Source: Escherichia phage ZCEC14. From it: DNA of 64,000 nt. The translations under genes were made by a program, and so were the position numbers. This document shows, piece by piece, positions 1,129 to 24,930 of the stretch (positions within the stretch are counted from its first letter, which is position 1; every line of letters starts with the position of its first letter). The stretch lies in the sequence record OP168898.1, one strand, 5' to 3'. The notes beneath the pieces are model-generated. The model did not search any database. It was not told the origin of the DNA and saw only the letters and a list, made by a program, of their open reading frames with translations.

Positions 1129-1155
1129 ACATTCATCAACTACTTGGAGGAAATT

Positions 1156-1296
1156 ATGACCCGTATCAATTTAACACTTGTTTCTGAATTGACCGACCAA
1201 CATCTTATGGCTGAGTATCGTGAATTACCACGCGTATTTGGTGCAGTCCGTGAACATGTTCAAAACGGTTTACGCTTAAGTATTAATATGGTATAA
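1156..1296 (+). pseudogene. truncated duplicate of denV 5' end (46 codons)
   Basis: [35 protein letters not shown] then divergent tail and stop; same N-terminus as full denV at 2306. Confidence 0.6.
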
Positions 1297-1945: not shown

Positions 1946-2248
1946 ATGAAAACATATCAAGAATTTATTACTGAAGCGCGAGTGAGTGCAGGTAAATTAG
2001 AAGCCGCTATAAATAAAAAGGCCCATTCATTTCATGATTTGTCCGATAAAGACCGTAAGAAACTTGTAAGCCTTTATATTGACAAAGAGCGTATTCTCGC
2101 TCTTCCTGGCGCTAATGAAGGTAAACAGGCCAAGCCTTTGAATGCTGTCGAAAAGAAAATTGATAACTTTGCTTCTAAATTCGGTATGTCTATGGATGAC
2201 CTTCAGCAAGCGGCTATCGAAGCAGCTAAAGTAATTAAAGGTAAATAA
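1946..2248 (+). CDS. ipII: internal protein II
   Basis: 100 aa; MKTYQEFITEA N-terminus; size and position of T4 IPII. Confidence 0.8.
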   Translation: MKTYQEFITEARVSAGKLEAAINKKAHSFHDLSDKDRKKLVSLYIDKERILALPGANEGKQAKPLNAVEKKIDNFASKFGMSMDDLQQAAIEAAKVIKGK

Positions 2249-2250
2249 CA

Positions 2251-2280
2251 GTTTACTTTCTCCTAGAATTGTGATAGTAT
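2251..2280 (+). promoter_or_regulatory. T4-type early promoter upstream of denV
   Basis: GTTTAC 2251-2256, -10 TAGTAT 2275-2280, SD GGAGGGG before ATG 2306. Confidence 0.6.
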
Positions 2281-2305
2281 AATCATAATTACTTGGAGGG
2301 GTAAA

Positions 2306-2722
2306 ATGACTCGTATTAATTTGACTTTAGTATCTGAACTTGCTGATCAACATTTAATCGCGGAATACCGTGAATTGCCACGTGTTTTTGGTATAATTCG
2401 TAAACACGTGGCAAATGGTAAACGGGTTAAAGATTTTAAAATATCTTCCGAGTTTATTTTAGGTTCTGGTCATGTTACGTTCTTTTACGATAAGTTAGAA
2501 TTTTTGCGAAAGCGTCAATCAGACATTATAACGGAATGCTTAAAACGCGGGTTTAGTATAAAAGATACTGAAGTTCCTGATATCAGTGATATTCCAGTAG
2601 AATGGAAAAATGATTATAATCCATGCAAATCAGCTATTAAGTTGAGTCAACAACGACTCGATGAAAAAATTTTAATGAAGCCGCACTGGTATAAGTATTA
2701 CGGCAAAAATATTTACATTTAA
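2306..2722 (+). CDS. denV: endonuclease V (pyrimidine dimer DNA glycosylase/AP lyase)
   Basis: 138 aa; [28 protein letters not shown] ... WYKYYGK; catalytic Thr2, Arg22, Glu23, Arg26 present. Confidence 0.95.
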
Positions 2723-2866
2723 ATAACATGGGAACAAGCTGGACCTCATGATTCTGTGAGGGATTCCCGCCAACCTGTAATAAGGTCGAGCCCAAGCGCG
2801 GTAATGGGTAAATACAGAAATGGACAATTCATGCGCCACGGAATGGCCCAAACTTAGAGAGAAGAA

Positions 2867-3406
2867 ATGAGAACATTTTTAACTGGTCCTTATCTATCCC
2901 TGATGAATGCTTTTACACACCATTCTGATGCTAGAGTAGAAGAAATTTGTAAAAACGAATATATCCCGCCATTTGAAGACTTACTTAAACAGTATTGCAC
3001 ACTTCGACTAGACGGTGGACGTCAATCCGGTAAATCAATTGCTGTGACTAACTTTGCTGCTAATTGGCTGTATGATGGCGGAACAGTTATTGTTCTTTCT
3101 AATACTTCAGCTTACGCTAAAATTTCTGCAAATAACATTAAAAAGGAATTTTCGCGTTATTCTAATGATGATATACGTTTTCGTTTATTTACTGATTCTG
3201 TACGCAGTTTTATTGGTAATAAAGGAAGCAAGTTCAGAGGTTTATCGCTTTCGCGAATTTTGTATATAATTGATGAGCCTGTCAAATCTCCTGATATGGA
3301 TAAGATTTATAGTGTCCATATTGACACTGTGCAACACTGCTGCAATAGTAAATGCTGCATTGGTGGTATTACTCGTCCGCAGTTTTTCGTAATCGGAATG
3401 CAATGA
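2867..3406 (+). CDS. hypothetical protein with P-loop NTPase-like motifs
   Basis: 179 aa; Walker A-like GGRQSGKS and Walker B-like IIDEP. Confidence 0.5.
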   Translation: MRTFLTGPYLSLMNAFTHHSDARVEEICKNEYIPPFEDLLKQYCTLRLDGGRQSGKSIAVTNFAANWLYDGGTVIVLSNTSAYAKISANNIKKEFSRYSNDDIRFRLFTDSVRSFIGNKGSKFRGLSLSRILYIIDEPVKSPDMDKIYSVHIDTVQHCCNSKCCIGGITRPQFFVIGMQ

Positions 3407-3732
3407 TGACAGACACACAGCTTTTCGAATATCTTTATTTTTCGCCAAAAACTATTAAAAATAAATTGGTGAATCATTTTGAAATTTTGGCAAAAAATAA
3501 CATTTTAAGTGAATTTTATCCTAAGCAATACAAATTACAAAAAGGAGTATTCAAAGGATGCAGAGTTTTGTGTACTGCTCCTAATGCAAGATTAATGAAT
3601 AAAATTCCATATTTTACCATGGAATTTATTGATGGACCTTTTAAAGGATTAATTACCCAAAGTTTAATGGCATATGATTCTGAGCCATTTTTAATTAAAG
3701 AACAATCTTGGATAAATTTATTTTCTAATTGA
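3403..3732 (+). CDS. hypothetical early protein
   Basis: 109 aa from ATG 3403, overlapping upstream stop. Confidence 0.5.
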
Positions 3733-3739
3733 GGTTTAT

Positions 3740-4102
3740 ATGAAAGCATATCAAATTCTTGAAGGCACACATAAAGGTACTATTTATTTTGAAGATGGTA
3801 TTCAAGCACGAATTATTGTCTCTAAAACCTTCAAAGAGGACTCTTTTGTAGATCCAGAAATTTTCTACGGTTTGCATGCCCGTGAAATTGAAATTGAGCC
3901 ACAACCTACAGTTAAAATTGAAGGTGGTCAACACTTGAACGTTAACGTTCTGCGTCGCGAAACTCTGGAAGATGCAGTTAAGCATCCGGAAAAATATCCG
4001 CAGCTGACCATCCGTGTATCCGGTTATGCAGTTCGCTTTAACTCTCTGACTCCGGAACAGCAGCGCGACGTTATCGCTCGTACCTTTACCGAGAGTTTGT
4101 AA
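3740..4102 (+). CDS. autonomous glycyl-radical cofactor, GrcA/YfiD-like
   Basis: 120 aa; C-terminal [50 protein letters not shown] glycyl-radical motif; 3' half has host-like codon usage. Confidence 0.85.
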
Positions 4103-4323
4103 TGGCAAAGATAATTATTGAAGGTTCTGAAGATGTGCTAAATGCTTTCGCCGAGTGGTTTAGTAATTCAGGCGAACAGCAATTTAATGAAGCGTGGAAT
4201 ATGGGTGATATTGATGGAATTTATCCTACGACAGAAATTTCTGTTCAGGGATATGGCATTCATGAACCTATTCGTTTAGTTGAATATGATTTGGGAACGG
4301 GTGAGGAAGTAGAATATGATTGA
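4102..4323 (+). CDS. hypothetical small early protein
   Basis: 73 aa; ATG overlaps upstream stop. Confidence 0.5.
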   Translation: MAKIIIEGSEDVLNAFAEWFSNSGEQQFNEAWNMGDIDGIYPTTEISVQGYGIHEPIRLVEYDLGTGEEVEYD

Positions 4324-4582
4324 AGATATTAAAGGTTATAAGCCGCACACTGAAGAGAAAATCGATAAAGTGAATGCTATCAAAGACGCTGAAGTTCGTT
4401 TAGGACTTATCTTTGACGCTTTATACGATGAATTCTGGGAAGCACTAGATAATTGTGAAGACTGCGAATTCGCGAAGAATTATGCTGAAAGCCTCGATCA
4501 GTTAACTATTGCTAAAACGAAACTCAAAGAAGCCAGTATGTGGGCTTGTCGTGCCGTGTTCCAACCAGAGGAAAAATACTAA
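4316..4582 (+). CDS. hypothetical small early protein (position of T4 vs.4 by ORF count)
   Basis: 88 aa; fifth of six ORFs between denV and regB. Confidence 0.5.
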
Positions 4583-4860
4583 TGGCTCAATTAAGCGCCG
4601 GGTTTGGTTATGAGTATTATACTGCCCCTCGTCGTGTGTCTGTTGCTCCTAAGAAAATTCAAAGTCTTGATGACTTCCAGGAAGTAGTCCGTAAAGCTTT
4701 CCAGGACTATGCACGTTATCTTAAAGAAGATTCGCAGGACTGTCTCGAAGAAGATGAAATTGCTTACTATGAGCAACGTCTTGAGCAGCTTAAAAACCTA
4801 CATGAGGTCCGTGCAGAAGTTTCAAAGTCTATGAATAAATTGATTAGATTTAAAGAATAA
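4582..4860 (+). CDS. hypothetical small early protein
   Basis: 92 aa from ATG 4582 (TAATG overlap). Confidence 0.5.
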
Positions 4861-4862
4861 CT

Positions 4863-4892
4863 GTTTACTTTTCCTCTTGACTGTGGTATAAT
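4863..4892 (+). promoter_or_regulatory. T4-type early promoter upstream of regB
   Basis: GTTTAC 4863-4868, extended -10 TGGTATAAT ending 4892. Confidence 0.7.
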
Positions 4893-4919
4893 TTTTCTAT
4901 CAGTTAAGAGGAGAACAAC

Positions 4920-5381
4920 ATGACTATCAACACAGAAGTTTTTATCCGTCGAAATAAGCTCCGTCGTCACTTTGAGTCGGAGTTTCGTCAAATTAACAAT
5001 GAGATTCGTGAGGCATCAAAAGCAGCAGGAGTCTCATCGTTTCATCTAAAATATTCTCAGCATCTTCTTGACCGCGCAATTCAACGGGAGATTGATGAGA
5101 CATACGTTTTTGAATTATTCCATAAAATAAAAGACCATGTTTTAGAAGTTAATGAATTCCTAAGTATGCCTCCGCGTCCTGACATTGACGAGGATTTTAT
5201 TGATGGGGTTGAATATCGTCCTGGACGTTTAGAAATCACAGATGGAAATCTTTGGCTTGGATTTACAGTTTGTAAACCTAACGAGAAGTTCAAAGACCCG
5301 TCACTTCAATGTAGGATGGCAATTATCAACAGTCGTCGTTTACCAGGAAAGGCTTCTAAAGCAGTAATTAAAACTCAATGA
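4920..5381 (+). CDS. regB: RegB site-specific endoribonuclease
   Basis: 153 aa; MTINTEVFIRRNKLRRHFESEFRQINNEIREASK... matches T4 RegB. Confidence 0.9.
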   Translation: MTINTEVFIRRNKLRRHFESEFRQINNEIREASKAAGVSSFHLKYSQHLLDRAIQREIDETYVFELFHKIKDHVLEVNEFLSMPPRPDIDEDFIDGVEYRPGRLEITDGNLWLGFTVCKPNEKFKDPSLQCRMAIINSRRLPGKASKAVIKTQ

Positions 5382-5388
5382 GGTAAGC

Positions 5389-5934
5389 ATGAGAAAAGCA
5401 CTACTCGCTGGTCTATTGGCCATTTCAATGATGGCACATAGCTCCGAGCATACTTTCAGTAATGTCCAACTCGATAACATGCGTTACGCGTATCAATTCG
5501 GGGAACAATTTTCTAAGGATGGAAAATATAAAACACATAAAAATATCCACAAGAGCGGATTAGGTCATATAATGGCTGCTATTTTATGGCAAGAAAGCTC
5601 TGGCGGAGTTAATTTAAAATCTAAACCAAAGCATCACGCCTACGGAATGTTCCAAAATTATTTGCCTACTATGCGAGCAAGAGTTAAGGAACTTGGTTAT
5701 AATATGACCGATGCTGAAATAAAAAGAATGTTGAATAAACGATCCAATTCAGCTTCCTGGGCGTACATTGAACTTTCTTATTGGTTAAATATACATAAGG
5801 GCGATATAAGAAAAGCAATATCCTCTTATAATTCGGGATGGAATGTTAAAGCAGGTTCTAAATATGCTTCTGAAGTCCTAGAAAAGGCTAATTACCTTAA
5901 AAATAATAAACTTTTGGAAATAGTAAATGACTAA
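5389..5934 (+). CDS. secreted lytic-transglycosylase-like protein
   Basis: 181 aa; N-terminal signal peptide; QESSGG...GMFQ resembles SLT catalytic motif. Confidence 0.5.
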   Translation: MRKALLAGLLAISMMAHSSEHTFSNVQLDNMRYAYQFGEQFSKDGKYKTHKNIHKSGLGHIMAAILWQESSGGVNLKSKPKHHAYGMFQNYLPTMRARVKELGYNMTDAEIKRMLNKRSNSASWAYIELSYWLNIHKGDIRKAISSYNSGWNVKAGSKYASEVLEKANYLKNNKLLEIVND

Positions 5935-7688: not shown

Positions 7689-8270
7689 ATGGCGAGTTTA
7701 ATTTTTACTTATGCAGCAATGAATGCTGGAAAATCTGCTTCTCTTTTGACTGCTGCACATAATTATAAAGAACGCGGAATGAGTGTATTAGTTCTTAAGC
7801 CTGCTATTGATACTCGCGACTCTGTCTGTGAAGTCGTTTCTCGCATTGGAATTAAGCAGGAAGCGAATATTATCACAGATGATATGGATATTTTCGAGTT
7901 CTATAAATGGGCTGAAGCACAAAAAGATATTCATTGTGTATTTGTAGATGAAGCTCAGTTTTTAAAAACTGAACAGGTGCATCAATTAAGCCGAATTGTT
8001 GATACATATAATGTTCCTGTTATGGCTTATGGATTAAGGACTGATTTCGCTGGAAAATTATTTGAAGGTTCTAAAGAACTTTTAGCGATTGCAGATAAAC
8101 TTATTGAACTAAAAGCAGTTTGTCATTGCGGTAAAAAAGCGATTATGACAGCTCGATTAATGGAAGATGGAACACCAGTTAAAGAAGGTAATCAAATCTG
8201 TATTGGTGATGAAATTTATGTTTCTTTGTGTAGAAAACATTGGAATGAATTAACTAAAAAGCTCGGTTAG
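7689..8270 (+). CDS. tk: thymidine kinase
   Basis: 193 aa; P-loop AAMNAGKSASLL, C-terminal CHCGKKA zinc motif. Confidence 0.95.
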   Translation: MASLIFTYAAMNAGKSASLLTAAHNYKERGMSVLVLKPAIDTRDSVCEVVSRIGIKQEANIITDDMDIFEFYKWAEAQKDIHCVFVDEAQFLKTEQVHQLSRIVDTYNVPVMAYGLRTDFAGKLFEGSKELLAIADKLIELKAVCHCGKKAIMTARLMEDGTPVKEGNQICIGDEIYVSLCRKHWNELTKKLG

Positions 8271-22175: not shown

Positions 22176-22649
22176 ATGTTATTGACTGGCAAATTATATA
22201 AAGAAGAAAAACAGAAATTTTATGATGCACAAAACGGTAAATGCTTAATTTGCCAACGAGAACTAAATCCTGATGTTCAAGCTAATCACCTCGACCATGA
22301 CCATGAATTAAATGGACCAAAAGCAGGAAAGGTGCGTGGATTGCTTTGTAATCTCTGCAATGCCGCAGAAGGTCAAATGAAACATAAATTTAATCGTTCT
22401 GGCTTAAAGGGACAAGGGGTTGATTATCTTGAATGGTTAGAAAATTTACTTACTTATTTAAAATCCGATTACACCCAAAATAATATTCACCCTAACTTTG
22501 TTGGAGATAAATCAAAGGAATTTTCTCGTTTAGGAAAAGAGGAAATGATGGCTGAGATGCTTCAAAGAGGATTTGAATATAATGAATCTGACACCAAAAC
22601 ACAGTTAATAGCTTCATTTAAGAAGCAGCTTAGAAAGAGTTTAAAATGA
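22176..22649 (+). CDS. 49: endonuclease VII (Holliday junction resolvase)
   Basis: 157 aa; MLLTGKLYKEEKQKFYDAQNGKCLICQRE...HLDHDHELNG. Confidence 0.9.
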   Translation: MLLTGKLYKEEKQKFYDAQNGKCLICQRELNPDVQANHLDHDHELNGPKAGKVRGLLCNLCNAAEGQMKHKFNRSGLKGQGVDYLEWLENLLTYLKSDYTQNNIHPNFVGDKSKEFSRLGKEEMMAEMLQRGFEYNESDTKTQLIASFKKQLRKSLK

Positions 22650-24463
22650 CAATTGAAAAAGAAATTGAAGGATTGATTCATAAAACTAATAAAGACCTTT
22701 TAAACGAGAATGCTAATAAAGATTCTCGTGTTTTTCCAACTCAACGGGACCTTATGGCTGGTATTGTGTCTAAACACATTGCCAAAAATATGGTCCCGTC
22801 TTTTATTATGAAAGCGCATGAAAGCGGAATTATTCATTTCCACGATATTGATTATTCCCCTGCTCTTCCATTTACTAATTGCTGTTTAGTAGATTTAAAA
22901 GGAATGCTTGAGAACGGATTTAAGCTAGGTAATGCACAGATTGAAACTCCTAAATCAATTGGCGTTGCTACTGCAATTATGGCACAAATTACTGCACAGG
23001 TTGCTTCTCACCAATATGGCGGAACGACTTTTGCGAATGTAGATAAAGTACTTTCTCCTTATGTTAAACGCACCTATGCAAAACATATTGAGGATGCAGA
23101 AAAATGGCAAATCACTGATGCGTTGAATTATGCTCAATCTAAAACAGAAAAAGACGTATACGATGCATTCCAAGCTTATGAATATGAAGTAAATACTCTC
23201 TTTAGTTCAAACGGACAAACGCCTTTTGTAACAATTACATTTGGTACGGGAACTGACTGGACTGAACGAATGATTCAGAAAGCAATTCTGAAAAATCGTA
23301 TTAAAGGTCTTGGTCGTGATGGGATAACTCCTATTTTCCCTAAGCTTGTTATGTTCGTTGAAGAAGGTGTTAATCTTTATAAAGACGATCCGAACTATGA
23401 TATTAAGCAGCTTGCTCTAGAGTGTGCAAGCAAAAGGATGTATCCTGATATTATTTCAGCTAAGAACAATAAAGCTATCACTGGTTCATCTGTTCCTGTT
23501 TCTCCAATGGGTTGCCGTAGTTTCTTGAGCGTATGGAAAGATTCGACTGGCAATGAAATTCTTGATGGACGTAATAATCTTGGTGTTGTAACATTGAATC
23601 TTCCTCGCATCGCGTTAGATTCTTATATTGGAACACAGTTCAATGAACAGAAATTTGTTGAATTGTTCAATGAACGAATGGATTTATGTTTTGAAGCTTT
23701 GATGTGTAGAATTAGTTCCTTAAAAGGAGTTAAAGCTACTGTTGCTCCTATTCTTTACCAAGAAGGTGCATTCGGGGTTCGTCTTAAACCTGATGACGAT
23801 ATAATTGAGTTATTTAAAAACGGTAGAAGTTCAGTGTCTTTAGGATACATTGGTATTCACGAATTGAATATTCTTGTCGGTCGTGATATTGGACAGGAAA
23901 TTTTAACTAAAATGAATGCTCATCTTAAACAGTGGACTGAAAGAACCGGATTTGCTTTTAGTTTATATTCGACTCCTGCTGAAAACCTTTGTTATCGCTT
24001 CTGTAAACTTGATACAGAAAAATATGGAAGCGTAAAAGATGTTACCGATAAAGGCTGGTACACTAACAGTTTCCATGTTTCAGTAGAAGAAAATATTACT
24101 CCGTTTGAAAAAATTTCTCGTGAAGCGCCATATCATTTCATTGCGACAGGTGGTCACATTTCTTATGTTGAACTTCCTGATATGAAAAACAATTTAAAAG
24201 GTCTTGAGGCTGTATGGGATTATGCTGCACAACATTTAGATTATTTTGGTGTTAATATGCCAGTAGATAAATGTTTTACATGTGGAAGTACCCATGAAAT
24301 GACTCCTACTGAAAACGGATTTGTTTGTTCTATTTGTGAAGAAACTGATCCTAAAAAGATGAATACTATAAGAAGAACATGTGGTTATTTGGGAAATCCG
24401 AACGAACGCGGATTTAATCTCGGTAAAAATAAAGAAATCATGCATAGGGTTAAGCACCAATGA
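22646..24463 (+). CDS. nrdD: anaerobic ribonucleoside-triphosphate reductase (class III)
   Basis: 605 aa uninterrupted ORF; C-terminal glycyl-radical region RRTCGYLG; no intron. Confidence 0.95.
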   Translation: MTIEKEIEGLIHKTNKDLLNENANKDSRVFPTQRDLMAGIVSKHIAKNMVPSFIMKAHESGIIHFHDIDYSPALPFTNCCLVDLKGMLENGFKLGNAQIETPKSIGVATAIMAQITAQVASHQYGGTTFANVDKVLSPYVKRTYAKHIEDAEKWQITDALNYAQSKTEKDVYDAFQAYEYEVNTLFSSNGQTPFVTITFGTGTDWTERMIQKAILKNRIKGLGRDGITPIFPKLVMFVEEGVNLYKDDPNYDIKQLALECASKRMYPDIISAKNNKAITGSSVPVSPMGCRSFLSVWKDSTGNEILDGRNNLGVVTLNLPRIALDSYIGTQFNEQKFVELFNERMDLCFEALMCRISSLKGVKATVAPILYQEGAFGVRLKPDDDIIELFKNGRSSVSLGYIGIHELNILVGRDIGQEILTKMNAHLKQWTERTGFAFSLYSTPAENLCYRFCKLDTEKYGSVKDVTDKGWYTNSFHVSVEENITPFEKISREAPYHFIATGGHISYVELPDMKNNLKGLEAVWDYAAQHLDYFGVNMPVDKCFTCGSTHEMTPTENGFVCSICEETDPKKMNTIRRTCGYLGNPNERGFNLGKNKEIMHRVKHQ

Positions 24464-24930
24464 ATTATGATAGATTTTATCCTTGCGATTTTGTGAATGG
24501 CCCTGGTTGCAGGGTCGTTCTTTTCGTTACAGGTTGTTTGCATAAATGTGAAGGGTGTTATAATAAATCAACATGGAATGCTAGAAATGGTATTCCATTC
24601 ACTGGTGAAACACTAGAACAATTGATTGAATGTTTGAATAATGATTATATAGAAGGATTAACTATAACTGGAGGAGACCCTCTCTATCCTGACAATCGAG
24701 ATGTTATTCATTGCATTGTTCAAACAGTAAAAAATCTTTATCCCAATAAAAGCATTTGGTTGTGGACAGGATATAAGTTTGAAGATATTAAACAACTAGA
24801 AATGCTTAAATATGTTGATGTTATTATTGATGGGAAGTATGAGAAAAATCTTCCGACTAAAAAGCTGTGGCGAGGATCAGATAATCAGCGACTTTGGTCA
24901 AATACCGATGGGGTGTGGAAACATGATTAA
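24460..24930 (+). CDS. nrdG: anaerobic RNR activating enzyme (radical SAM)
   Basis: 156 aa; CLHKCEGCYN cluster motif; ATGA overlap with nrdD. Confidence 0.9.
   Translation: MNYDRFYPCDFVNGPGCRVVLFVTGCLHKCEGCYNKSTWNARNGIPFTGETLEQLIECLNNDYIEGLTITGGDPLYPDNRDVIHCIVQTVKNLYPNKSIWLWTGYKFEDIKQLEMLKYVDVIIDGKYEKNLPTKKLWRGSDNQRLWSNTDGVWKHD

Follow-up and report, generated by a model that had tools for sequence, protein, structure and literature searches.

A segment of host grcA within the T4-type phage gene vs.6

The vs.6 gene and its closest known relatives

The closest described relatives of the gene analysed here are Vs.6 (Y06I) of phage T4 and the small stand-alone protein GrcA of E. coli (YfiD; TIGR04365 / IPR011140). 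T4 Y06I is reported to be activated by PFL-AE and to rescue O2-cleaved pyruvate formate-lyase (PFL) in vitro (Wagner 2001, as cited in PMC8683613), and E. coli GrcA is described in the same source as having the same in vitro activity (PMC8683613). The gene and its biochemistry are already known. Both proteins share their fold family and motif with the C-terminal glycyl-radical domain of PflB, which they replace after oxygen cleavage. A second precedent comes from cyanophages, T4-like phages in which the host-derived metabolic genes psbA and psbD have exchanged segments with the host copy; in these genes intragenic host-phage exchange has been described with patchy G+C content, statistical support and clustering by host (Zeidner 2005; Sullivan 2006, PMC1484495). 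Like psbA and psbD, vs.6 is a metabolic gene of a T4-like phage in which a segment has been exchanged with the host copy. In contrast to them, vs.6 carries one clean patch whose exact identity to an identifiable host species extends over up to 154-158 bp. Transfer was unambiguously from host to phage, and the gene belongs to enterobacterial T-even phages, T4 included, and encodes a repair cofactor instead of a photosystem subunit. Neither the vs.6/grcA nucleotide mosaic nor patches specific to a host came up in the searchable literature, although they may have been mentioned before.

The window (the whole 64-kb stretch of sequence record OP168898.1 that was analysed) comes from a T4-type phage of the genus Tequatrovirus, and positions 3300-4400 are 94-97% identical to many Tequatrovirus genomes. 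The gene order around vs.6 is the same as in T4 (denV, vs.8, vs.7, vs.6, vs.5, vs.4, vs.3, regB). The features of the window that we refer to are:

330-818, lysozyme gene e
2306-2722, denV
3731..3734, + strand, putative Shine-Dalgarno sequence GAGG, read from the sequence, 5 nt before the ATG of vs.6 and overlapping the vs.7 stop codon TGA (3730-3732)
3740..4102, + strand, vs.6, whole gene, encoding a 120-aa GrcA-like autonomous glycyl-radical cofactor, ortholog of T4 vs.6 (Y06I)
7689-8270, tk
22646-24930, NrdD/NrdG genes

We found that the 120-aa product is identical to T4 Vs.6. The initial annotation had mentioned Y06I as a reported T4 counterpart and had treated the gene itself as not new; the gene is indeed not new, but Y06I is more than a counterpart, since it is the same protein. 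The T4 gene has the same neighbours and shares the E. coli-type tract, which in T4 is 98.4-98.9% identical to grcA, and it differs from the gene in the window at a few synonymous sites, where the window has CGC against CGT in T4, TTG at 3935 and ACC GAG at the 3' edge.

By all sequence hallmarks Vs.6 is GrcA and is predicted to work like GrcA, yet it sits on a phage-specific branch (PHROG 1209, whose match spans its full length). At 120 aa, with PF01228 as essentially its one domain, it is a small stand-alone glycyl-radical protein of the ~14 kDa kind. The Pfam Gly_radical domain (PF01228) lies at residues 61-101 with a score of 66.8 bits (cut-off 22.2), the PFL-type radical motif RVSGY is present with its Gly at residue 95, and the protein also aligns with positions 680-744, at the C-terminal end of the PFL model TIGR01255. 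The best NCBIfam match is the GrcA family TIGR04365, which aligns with residues 20-120 at 153.3 bits. This score falls below the curated equivalog cut-off of 170 bits because the N-terminal half is divergent; for comparison, E. coli GrcA scores 234 bits and an RB16-like phage copy 155.5 bits. Vs.6 and E. coli GrcA share the C-terminal 59 residues, RVSGY included, without a difference. In contrast, the N-terminal half of Vs.6 is ~33% identical to that of GrcA, the phage protein is 7 residues shorter, and its gene lies in a phage gene cluster and is not under the host grcA promoter and regulation.

In this cluster the genes are tightly packed: the vs.6 stop codon overlaps the vs.5 start codon (TAATG, 4100-4104), and the vs.7 stop codon overlaps the ribosome-binding site of vs.6 (3730-3740), where GAGG is probably the Shine-Dalgarno sequence. 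Such packing suggests that translation may be coupled along vs.8 to vs.3. We found no RNA in an Rfam search of 3300-4500, and promoter- and terminator-like sites in 2200-5400 were in no excess over chance. On the opposite strand, a 127-aa ORF with a TTG start (3725-4108, - strand) covers all of vs.6; it is probably a shadow ORF, because 86 of the 87 long ORFs in the window lie on the + strand.

The host-identical tract and its junctions

When vs.6 was compared by blastn with 5,426 complete E. coli genomes, we found that query positions 179-363 (window 3918-4102) alone gave a match, which was to grcA, at 97.3% identity, and was present in 5,426 of the 5,426 genomes. The 5' part of the gene (3740-3917) had no nucleotide match in the E. 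coli genomes, and the rest of the 64-kb window had no other match to them, leaving the vs.6 tract as the sole host-like segment. The initial annotation had placed the breakpoint of a chimeric gene at about 3915-3920, and this was accurate, since the match starts at 3918. In a base-by-base alignment with K-12 grcA there is a 154-bp exact run at 3936-4089. The alignment contains five mismatches in total, all of them at the edges of the tract: one at 3935, where the window has TTG and K-12 has CTG (TTG is the state found in unconverted phage relatives), and four synonymous mismatches at 4090, 4093, 4096 and 4097. With five synonymous mismatches placed at random, a clean run of 154 bp has a probability of P = 3e-4. 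There is no DNA similarity to K-12 grcA past the stop codon or 5' of 3918. At the protein level, residues 62-120 of Vs.6 are all identical to residues 69-127 of K-12 GrcA, and at residue 61 the phage has I where the host has V, so the C-terminal ~60 residues are as close to GrcA as the initial annotation had stated. The gene divides into three parts:

3740..3917, + strand, phage-type 5' portion (residues 1-59), homologous to the N-terminal half of GrcA but strongly diverged from it
3918..4089, + strand, host-derived conversion tract from E. coli grcA, encoding the glycyl-radical domain including RVSGY
4090..4102, + strand, residual phage-type 3' end (last four codons and TAA), beyond the 3' junction

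The last four codons are placed outside the patch because they are genus-specific and resemble those of unconverted relatives. They read ACC GAG AGT TTG in the window as compared to ACT GAA AGC CTG in E. coli, and unconverted relatives end in ACA GAG AGT CTA. The ending is AGT TTG in Tequatrovirus and AG(T/C) CTA in Mosigvirus.

We then have a statistical measure of the two junction-bounded parts from a triplet test, in which the phage parent was represented by a CC31-like unconverted relative and the host parent by K-12. In the 5' flank, 64 of the 68 informative sites are phage-like and 4 are host-like, whereas in the tract 0 are phage-like and 31 are host-like (Fisher p = 4.5e-20). Over a 168-nt core, the window tract differs from E. 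coli at 1 position, from Citrobacter at 15 and from Klebsiella at 21-23. A segment with species-level identity to the host is enclosed by phage-type sequence in the same reading frame. The tract is of host origin, with the junctions at the positions mapped above, and its donor is grcA. As a possible donor, pflB had been named alongside grcA; it is ruled out, as its DNA is just 80% identical to the vs.6 tract.

The composition of the gene changes at the same place, so that the compositional patch coincides with the recombinant segment, as in psbA. GC content is 34.5% in the whole window, 34.5% in the 5' part of vs.6 and 49.2% in the 3' tract, and GC3 is 20.3% in the 5' part and 45.9% in the tract. 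As controls we used 1,198 windows of 61 codons from other ORFs, which have a mean GC of 35.2% (sd 3.9) and a mean GC3 of 24.5% (sd 6.4). None of the 1,198 reaches the GC of the tract and 0.33% of them reach its GC3, and both values of the 5' part are typical for the phage. The tract contains CTG four times and CCG, CAG and CGC three times each; the phage itself seldom chooses CTG (8%), CGC (14%) or CCG (18%), and for Gln it uses CAG (36%) less often than the alternative codon. The contrast that had been seen by reading the letters, between an AT-rich phage-like 5' half and a GC-richer 3' part with E. coli-type codons, is thus upheld by the computed values, and the composition is not uniform across the ORF.

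The 5' half is itself a distant homolog of grcA: its protein is 33% identical to the N-terminal half of K-12 GrcA over 40 residues (E = 2e-5). When it is compared with T4-like homologs, it is 98% identical to T4 and 88-89% identical to the Mosigvirus copies. Because the 5' half is a distant grcA homolog, the phage must already have had a full-length diverged copy, which was patched later. We consider it very likely that vs.6 is a long-resident phage gene of the GrcA 'spare part' type in which the 3' ~170 bp were overwritten by gene conversion with host grcA.

Three other explanations of the mosaic would do without such a conversion. If there had been no transfer at all, extreme protein conservation together with convergent codon optimisation of a highly expressed domain would have to produce the match, an account to which we give next to no probability. 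The C-terminal 61 residues are in fact identical across many Enterobacterales and several phage lineages, and in unconverted copies, too, the 3' halves are somewhat GC-richer than the 5' halves. However, copies that encode the same protein show how much nucleotide identity such conservation leaves. Over the last 61 codons, identity to K-12 grcA is 96.7% in the window (dS 0.12) and 97.8% in T4 (dS 0.07), as compared to 88.5% in Serratia grcA (dS 0.70) and 83% in the RB16-like phage copy L013 (dS 1.79), both of which encode the same 61 aa. The values are 91.8% for Citrobacter (dS 0.42) and 83.6% for Salmonella (dS 1.06), and the window tract is nearer to E. coli grcA than the grcA of any other genus is. 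Because copies with the same 61 aa are just 83-88.5% identical, with saturated dS (0.7-1.8), protein constraint cannot explain the match in the window, whose identity is higher than protein-level conservation gives. The 154-bp exact run also includes codons that are non-optimal in the host, CAA and GTA, and in the Klebsiella phages the codons at these places are Klebsiella's CAG and GTT, following Klebsiella codon choices.

A single old capture of the whole of grcA, after which the 5' half decayed fast and the 3' half was kept, would agree with the homology of the whole gene to grcA, including the weak but significant similarity of the N-terminal halves. It is nevertheless very improbable, since protein-level selection cannot keep synonymous sites and the core has a dS of ~0 next to a 5' half without DNA similarity; moreover, sister lineages hold the same gene with an unconverted 3' half, and Tequatrovirus and Mosigvirus have 0 core differences against a 5'-half dS of 0.36-0.45. 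The chance that the mosaic is an assembly or contamination artefact, in which host reads were merged into the phage contig, is negligible: the junctions recur identically in T4 and across hundreds of phages that were sequenced independently, and they lie in-frame within an intact reading frame. That the gene is a chimera made by recombination with host grcA, as the initial annotation had proposed, is decisively supported by the low dS of the tract (0.07-0.12), the position of the differences at its edges and the triplet test.

Direction, age and recurrence of the exchange

The direction of transfer is host to phage. In E. coli grcA, the two halves are equally diverged from their relatives, with identities of 98.0% and 98.4% to Escherichia sp., 88.9% and 91.8% to Citrobacter, and 84.3% and 83.6% to Salmonella, and the gene lies in a conserved ung-grcA context. 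The equal divergence of the two halves, this context and the host-like composition of the tract together give the direction. A reverse transfer, in which E. coli grcA received its 3' end from a phage, would recall the two-way exchange claimed for cyanophage psbA (PMC1484495). It is extremely unlikely here, as one half of E. coli grcA is no more diverged than the other from any of the three relatives and the tract is of host-type and not of phage-type composition, likewise in the Klebsiella case described below.

Members of the gene family occur widely among phages: a blastn search with grcA has matches in 1,507 phage records, and 496 records, T4 included, are 95-99% identical to it. To compare tracts we used a sample of thirteen copies taken from phages of E. 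coli, Shigella and Yersinia. Their tract consensus is E. coli grcA, and each phage has a few private changes; taken together, 34 of these are synonymous and 1 is non-synonymous. In T4 and the Mosigvirus RPN187, we found 0 differences in the core, although their 5' halves are 88.7% identical (dS 0.36). Because the core is unchanged despite this divergence of the 5' halves, the patch is younger than the split between Tequatrovirus and Mosigvirus. It could have arisen twice, or it could have arisen once and then spread from phage to phage. The recombination had been called recent, and this holds in the sense that it postdates the separation of Tequatrovirus and Mosigvirus and is no older than the species E. 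coli; it does not hold in the sense of an event within this isolate. The site with CGC in the window and CGT in T4 is also polymorphic in E. coli, and about half of evenly sampled E. coli genomes match the T4 tract at 98.9%.

In Tequatrovirus, private mutations accrue in the tract at about the rate of the 5' half, and Killian has 12 mismatches to K-12. Since divergence in the tract roughly keeps pace with that in the 5' half, conversion is episodic and not continuous, and these private mutations rule out continuous re-homogenisation as the main mode. We also considered a different breakpoint in Mosigvirus, where the BLAST match is 230 nt long (88-91%); in the alignment the junction is the same, and BLAST had run into weakly similar sequence.

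In Jiaodavirus (Klebsiella phages), we found a phage-type 5' half and phage-type last codons, together with a GC-rich tract that encodes the Klebsiella-type residues TLLDAVEH. In the 168-nt core, these copies have 3-8 mismatches to the common Klebsiella-type grcA and 18-22 to E. coli. In the E. coli phages the pattern is the reverse, with 1 mismatch to E. coli and 20-23 to Klebsiella. One Klebsiella-phage contig has a 158-bp exact run with Klebsiella grcA that begins at gene position 180, which is the junction seen in the E. coli phages. The Klebsiella-type grcA DNA used in these comparisons came from loci, located by protein search, for the protein listed at NCBI as K. variicola GrcA, and from 23 bacterial metagenome contigs; a metagenome scan with an exact 58-mer of the phage tract gave 24 matches, which were the 23 bacterial grcA genes and 1 phage. 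Thus, an E. coli-type tract is present in Tequatrovirus and Mosigvirus and a Klebsiella-type tract in Jiaodavirus, and there were at least two independent host-to-phage gene conversions, with E. coli and Klebsiella as donors. In Pseudotevenvirus (RB16/RB43-like phages, Cronobacter phage leE and Enterobacter phage HK6), we found no host matching. These phages encode the same C-terminus, and over 168 nt they differ from every bacterial grcA, that of Cronobacter included, at 25-32 positions.

Several further copies were seen among metagenomic and other phage sequences. In two KP15-like contigs of 174 kb (L018 and L019), the gene at 1501-1863 encodes the TLLDAVEH residues and has 29-32 differences from Klebsiella grcA in the 168-nt core; this may be an old conversion whose synonymous sites have since decayed, or it may be the outcome of selection for host-type residues. 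In a Jiaodavirus-like viral contig of 167 kb (L027, gene 1626-1862), just a 78-aa 3' ORF is open, and the Klebsiella-type tract is undamaged and has 4 mismatches in the core; the 5' part appears to be frameshifted or truncated. GrcA-like genes are also present in T5-like contigs (L043-L069, 104-122 kb), in jumbo-phage contigs (L026, L028 and L029, 345-357 kb) and in a 235-kb contig (L049). These have a phage-type N-terminus, often starting with MKAYQ, and their tracts are 70-77% identical to any bacterial grcA. In two independent low-GC metagenomic viral contigs (L036 and L038), the GrcA-like ORF at about 1450-1827 has an in-frame stop (ARCIC*VNGK), and it could be a pseudogene, a gene with a recoded stop or a split gene. 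A partial genome annotated as phage ('Peduoviridae', ON470623.1, L199) contains a full-length pflB followed by pflA, which is most likely host chromosome flanking a prophage and not a phage-encoded PFL.

Mechanism, selection and role in infection

T4 is the textbook virulent phage and degrades host DNA, and short homologous DNA in the cell is an efficient recombination partner for T-even phages, for example in marker rescue from plasmids. During infection, homologous recombination with chromosomal grcA would have replaced the 3' ~170 bp that encode the radical domain, and the sequence pattern points to UvsX-type phage recombination with fragments of host DNA. The radical domain is the only part of the gene conserved enough to provide DNA homology between phage and host. 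Both exchange points must then fall within this homology, which would explain why the patch starts at a conserved ten-residue motif and stops a few codons before the stop codon, and since exchange would be confined to the same stretch, the junctions would recur in independent events.

Because the patch leaves the E. coli-type protein unchanged, the event need not have been selected, and the patch in the E. coli phages may be neutral. Alternatively, it may be kept by selection, if a host-matched radical domain stays compatible with host PflA and PflB and is favoured after host shifts; we regard this as possible but doubtful. The Klebsiella patch did bring two host-specific residues (TLLDAVEH instead of TLEDAVKH), the KP15-like copy in L018 has Klebsiella-type residues despite its non-host codons, and the private mutations in the tract are nearly all synonymous, each of which is consistent with selection. 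In the E. coli phages, however, the protein is the same as in unconverted RB16-like copies, so that the patch can be neutral, and the Pseudotevenviruses of Cronobacter and Enterobacter do without host matching at the DNA level. A wider reading, which we put forward tentatively, is that the vs.6 tract might be a recurrent hotspot of recombination between lytic T-even phages and their hosts, in which host lineages would leave their grcA alleles and matching would be favoured for PflA/PflB compatibility. If this is true, the tract would record recent host use, including host residues such as Klebsiella LLDAVEH, the 150-185 bp of perfect homology installed by one exchange would ease further exchange, and gene conversion from host to virulent phage would be measurable in the best-studied phage.

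The physiological role of Vs.6 in infection, which we infer to be that of a spare part for PFL, would follow from the biochemistry of its relatives. The host PFL-activating enzyme PflA would install the radical on the free-standing Vs.6 domain, and activated Vs.6 would dock on host pyruvate formate-lyase whose radical domain has been cut by oxygen and restore its activity. Vs.6 is probably supplied early in infection because the phage shuts off host expression, including that of grcA, and would still depend on fermentative energy and acetyl-CoA from the host under low or fluctuating oxygen. The mosaic supports the view that the phage keeps vs.6 to sustain the fermentative metabolism of the host under oxygen stress.

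A different partner had been suggested in the initial annotation, where a spare glycyl-radical domain was thought to fit beside the phage's own oxygen-sensitive NrdD/NrdG. The window does encode NrdD and NrdG, and NrdD is likewise an oxygen-sensitive glycyl-radical enzyme, but this suggestion is not supported, and it is very unlikely that Vs.6 serves as a spare radical domain for the phage anaerobic ribonucleotide reductase NrdD. A distance of 18.5 kb separates the two loci, the C-terminus of Vs.6 has no significant similarity to NrdD (E = 2.4), and the radical motif of NrdD (RRTCGYLG) differs from the one around RVSGY in Vs.6. In addition, the domain is identical to that of host GrcA and closest to PflB, and the published activity, as it is cited in PMC8683613, is the rescue of PFL.

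With respect to phage evolution, this host-identical patch of 154-185 bp, repeated with another donor in Klebsiella phages, shows that recombination of virulent T-even phages with chromosomal genes of their hosts does occur in nature where a conserved domain gives enough homology, and vs.6 is an experimentally tractable locus for measuring exchange between phage and host. The tract might also serve as a sequence marker of the recent host genus, both in Tevenvirinae genomes and in metagenomic contigs. Caution is needed in annotation and contamination filtering, where pipelines might flag the tract as host DNA.

Elsewhere in the window, we observed a second, diverged copy of the 5' end of denV at 1141-1296 (+ strand), which includes the ribosome-binding site TACTTGGAGG and ~40 codons. 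With the genuine denV start at 2306 it shares ~75-80% DNA identity, and it is flanked by an internal-protein-like ORF and ipIII; recombination with a different T-even lineage probably left this remnant behind. In the same region, three adjacent ORFs (800-1096, 1326-1904 and 1946-2248, + strand) start with MKTY(S/Q)EF, a sequence resembling the leader by which T4 internal proteins (ipIII, ipII and a variable third) are targeted to the capsid.
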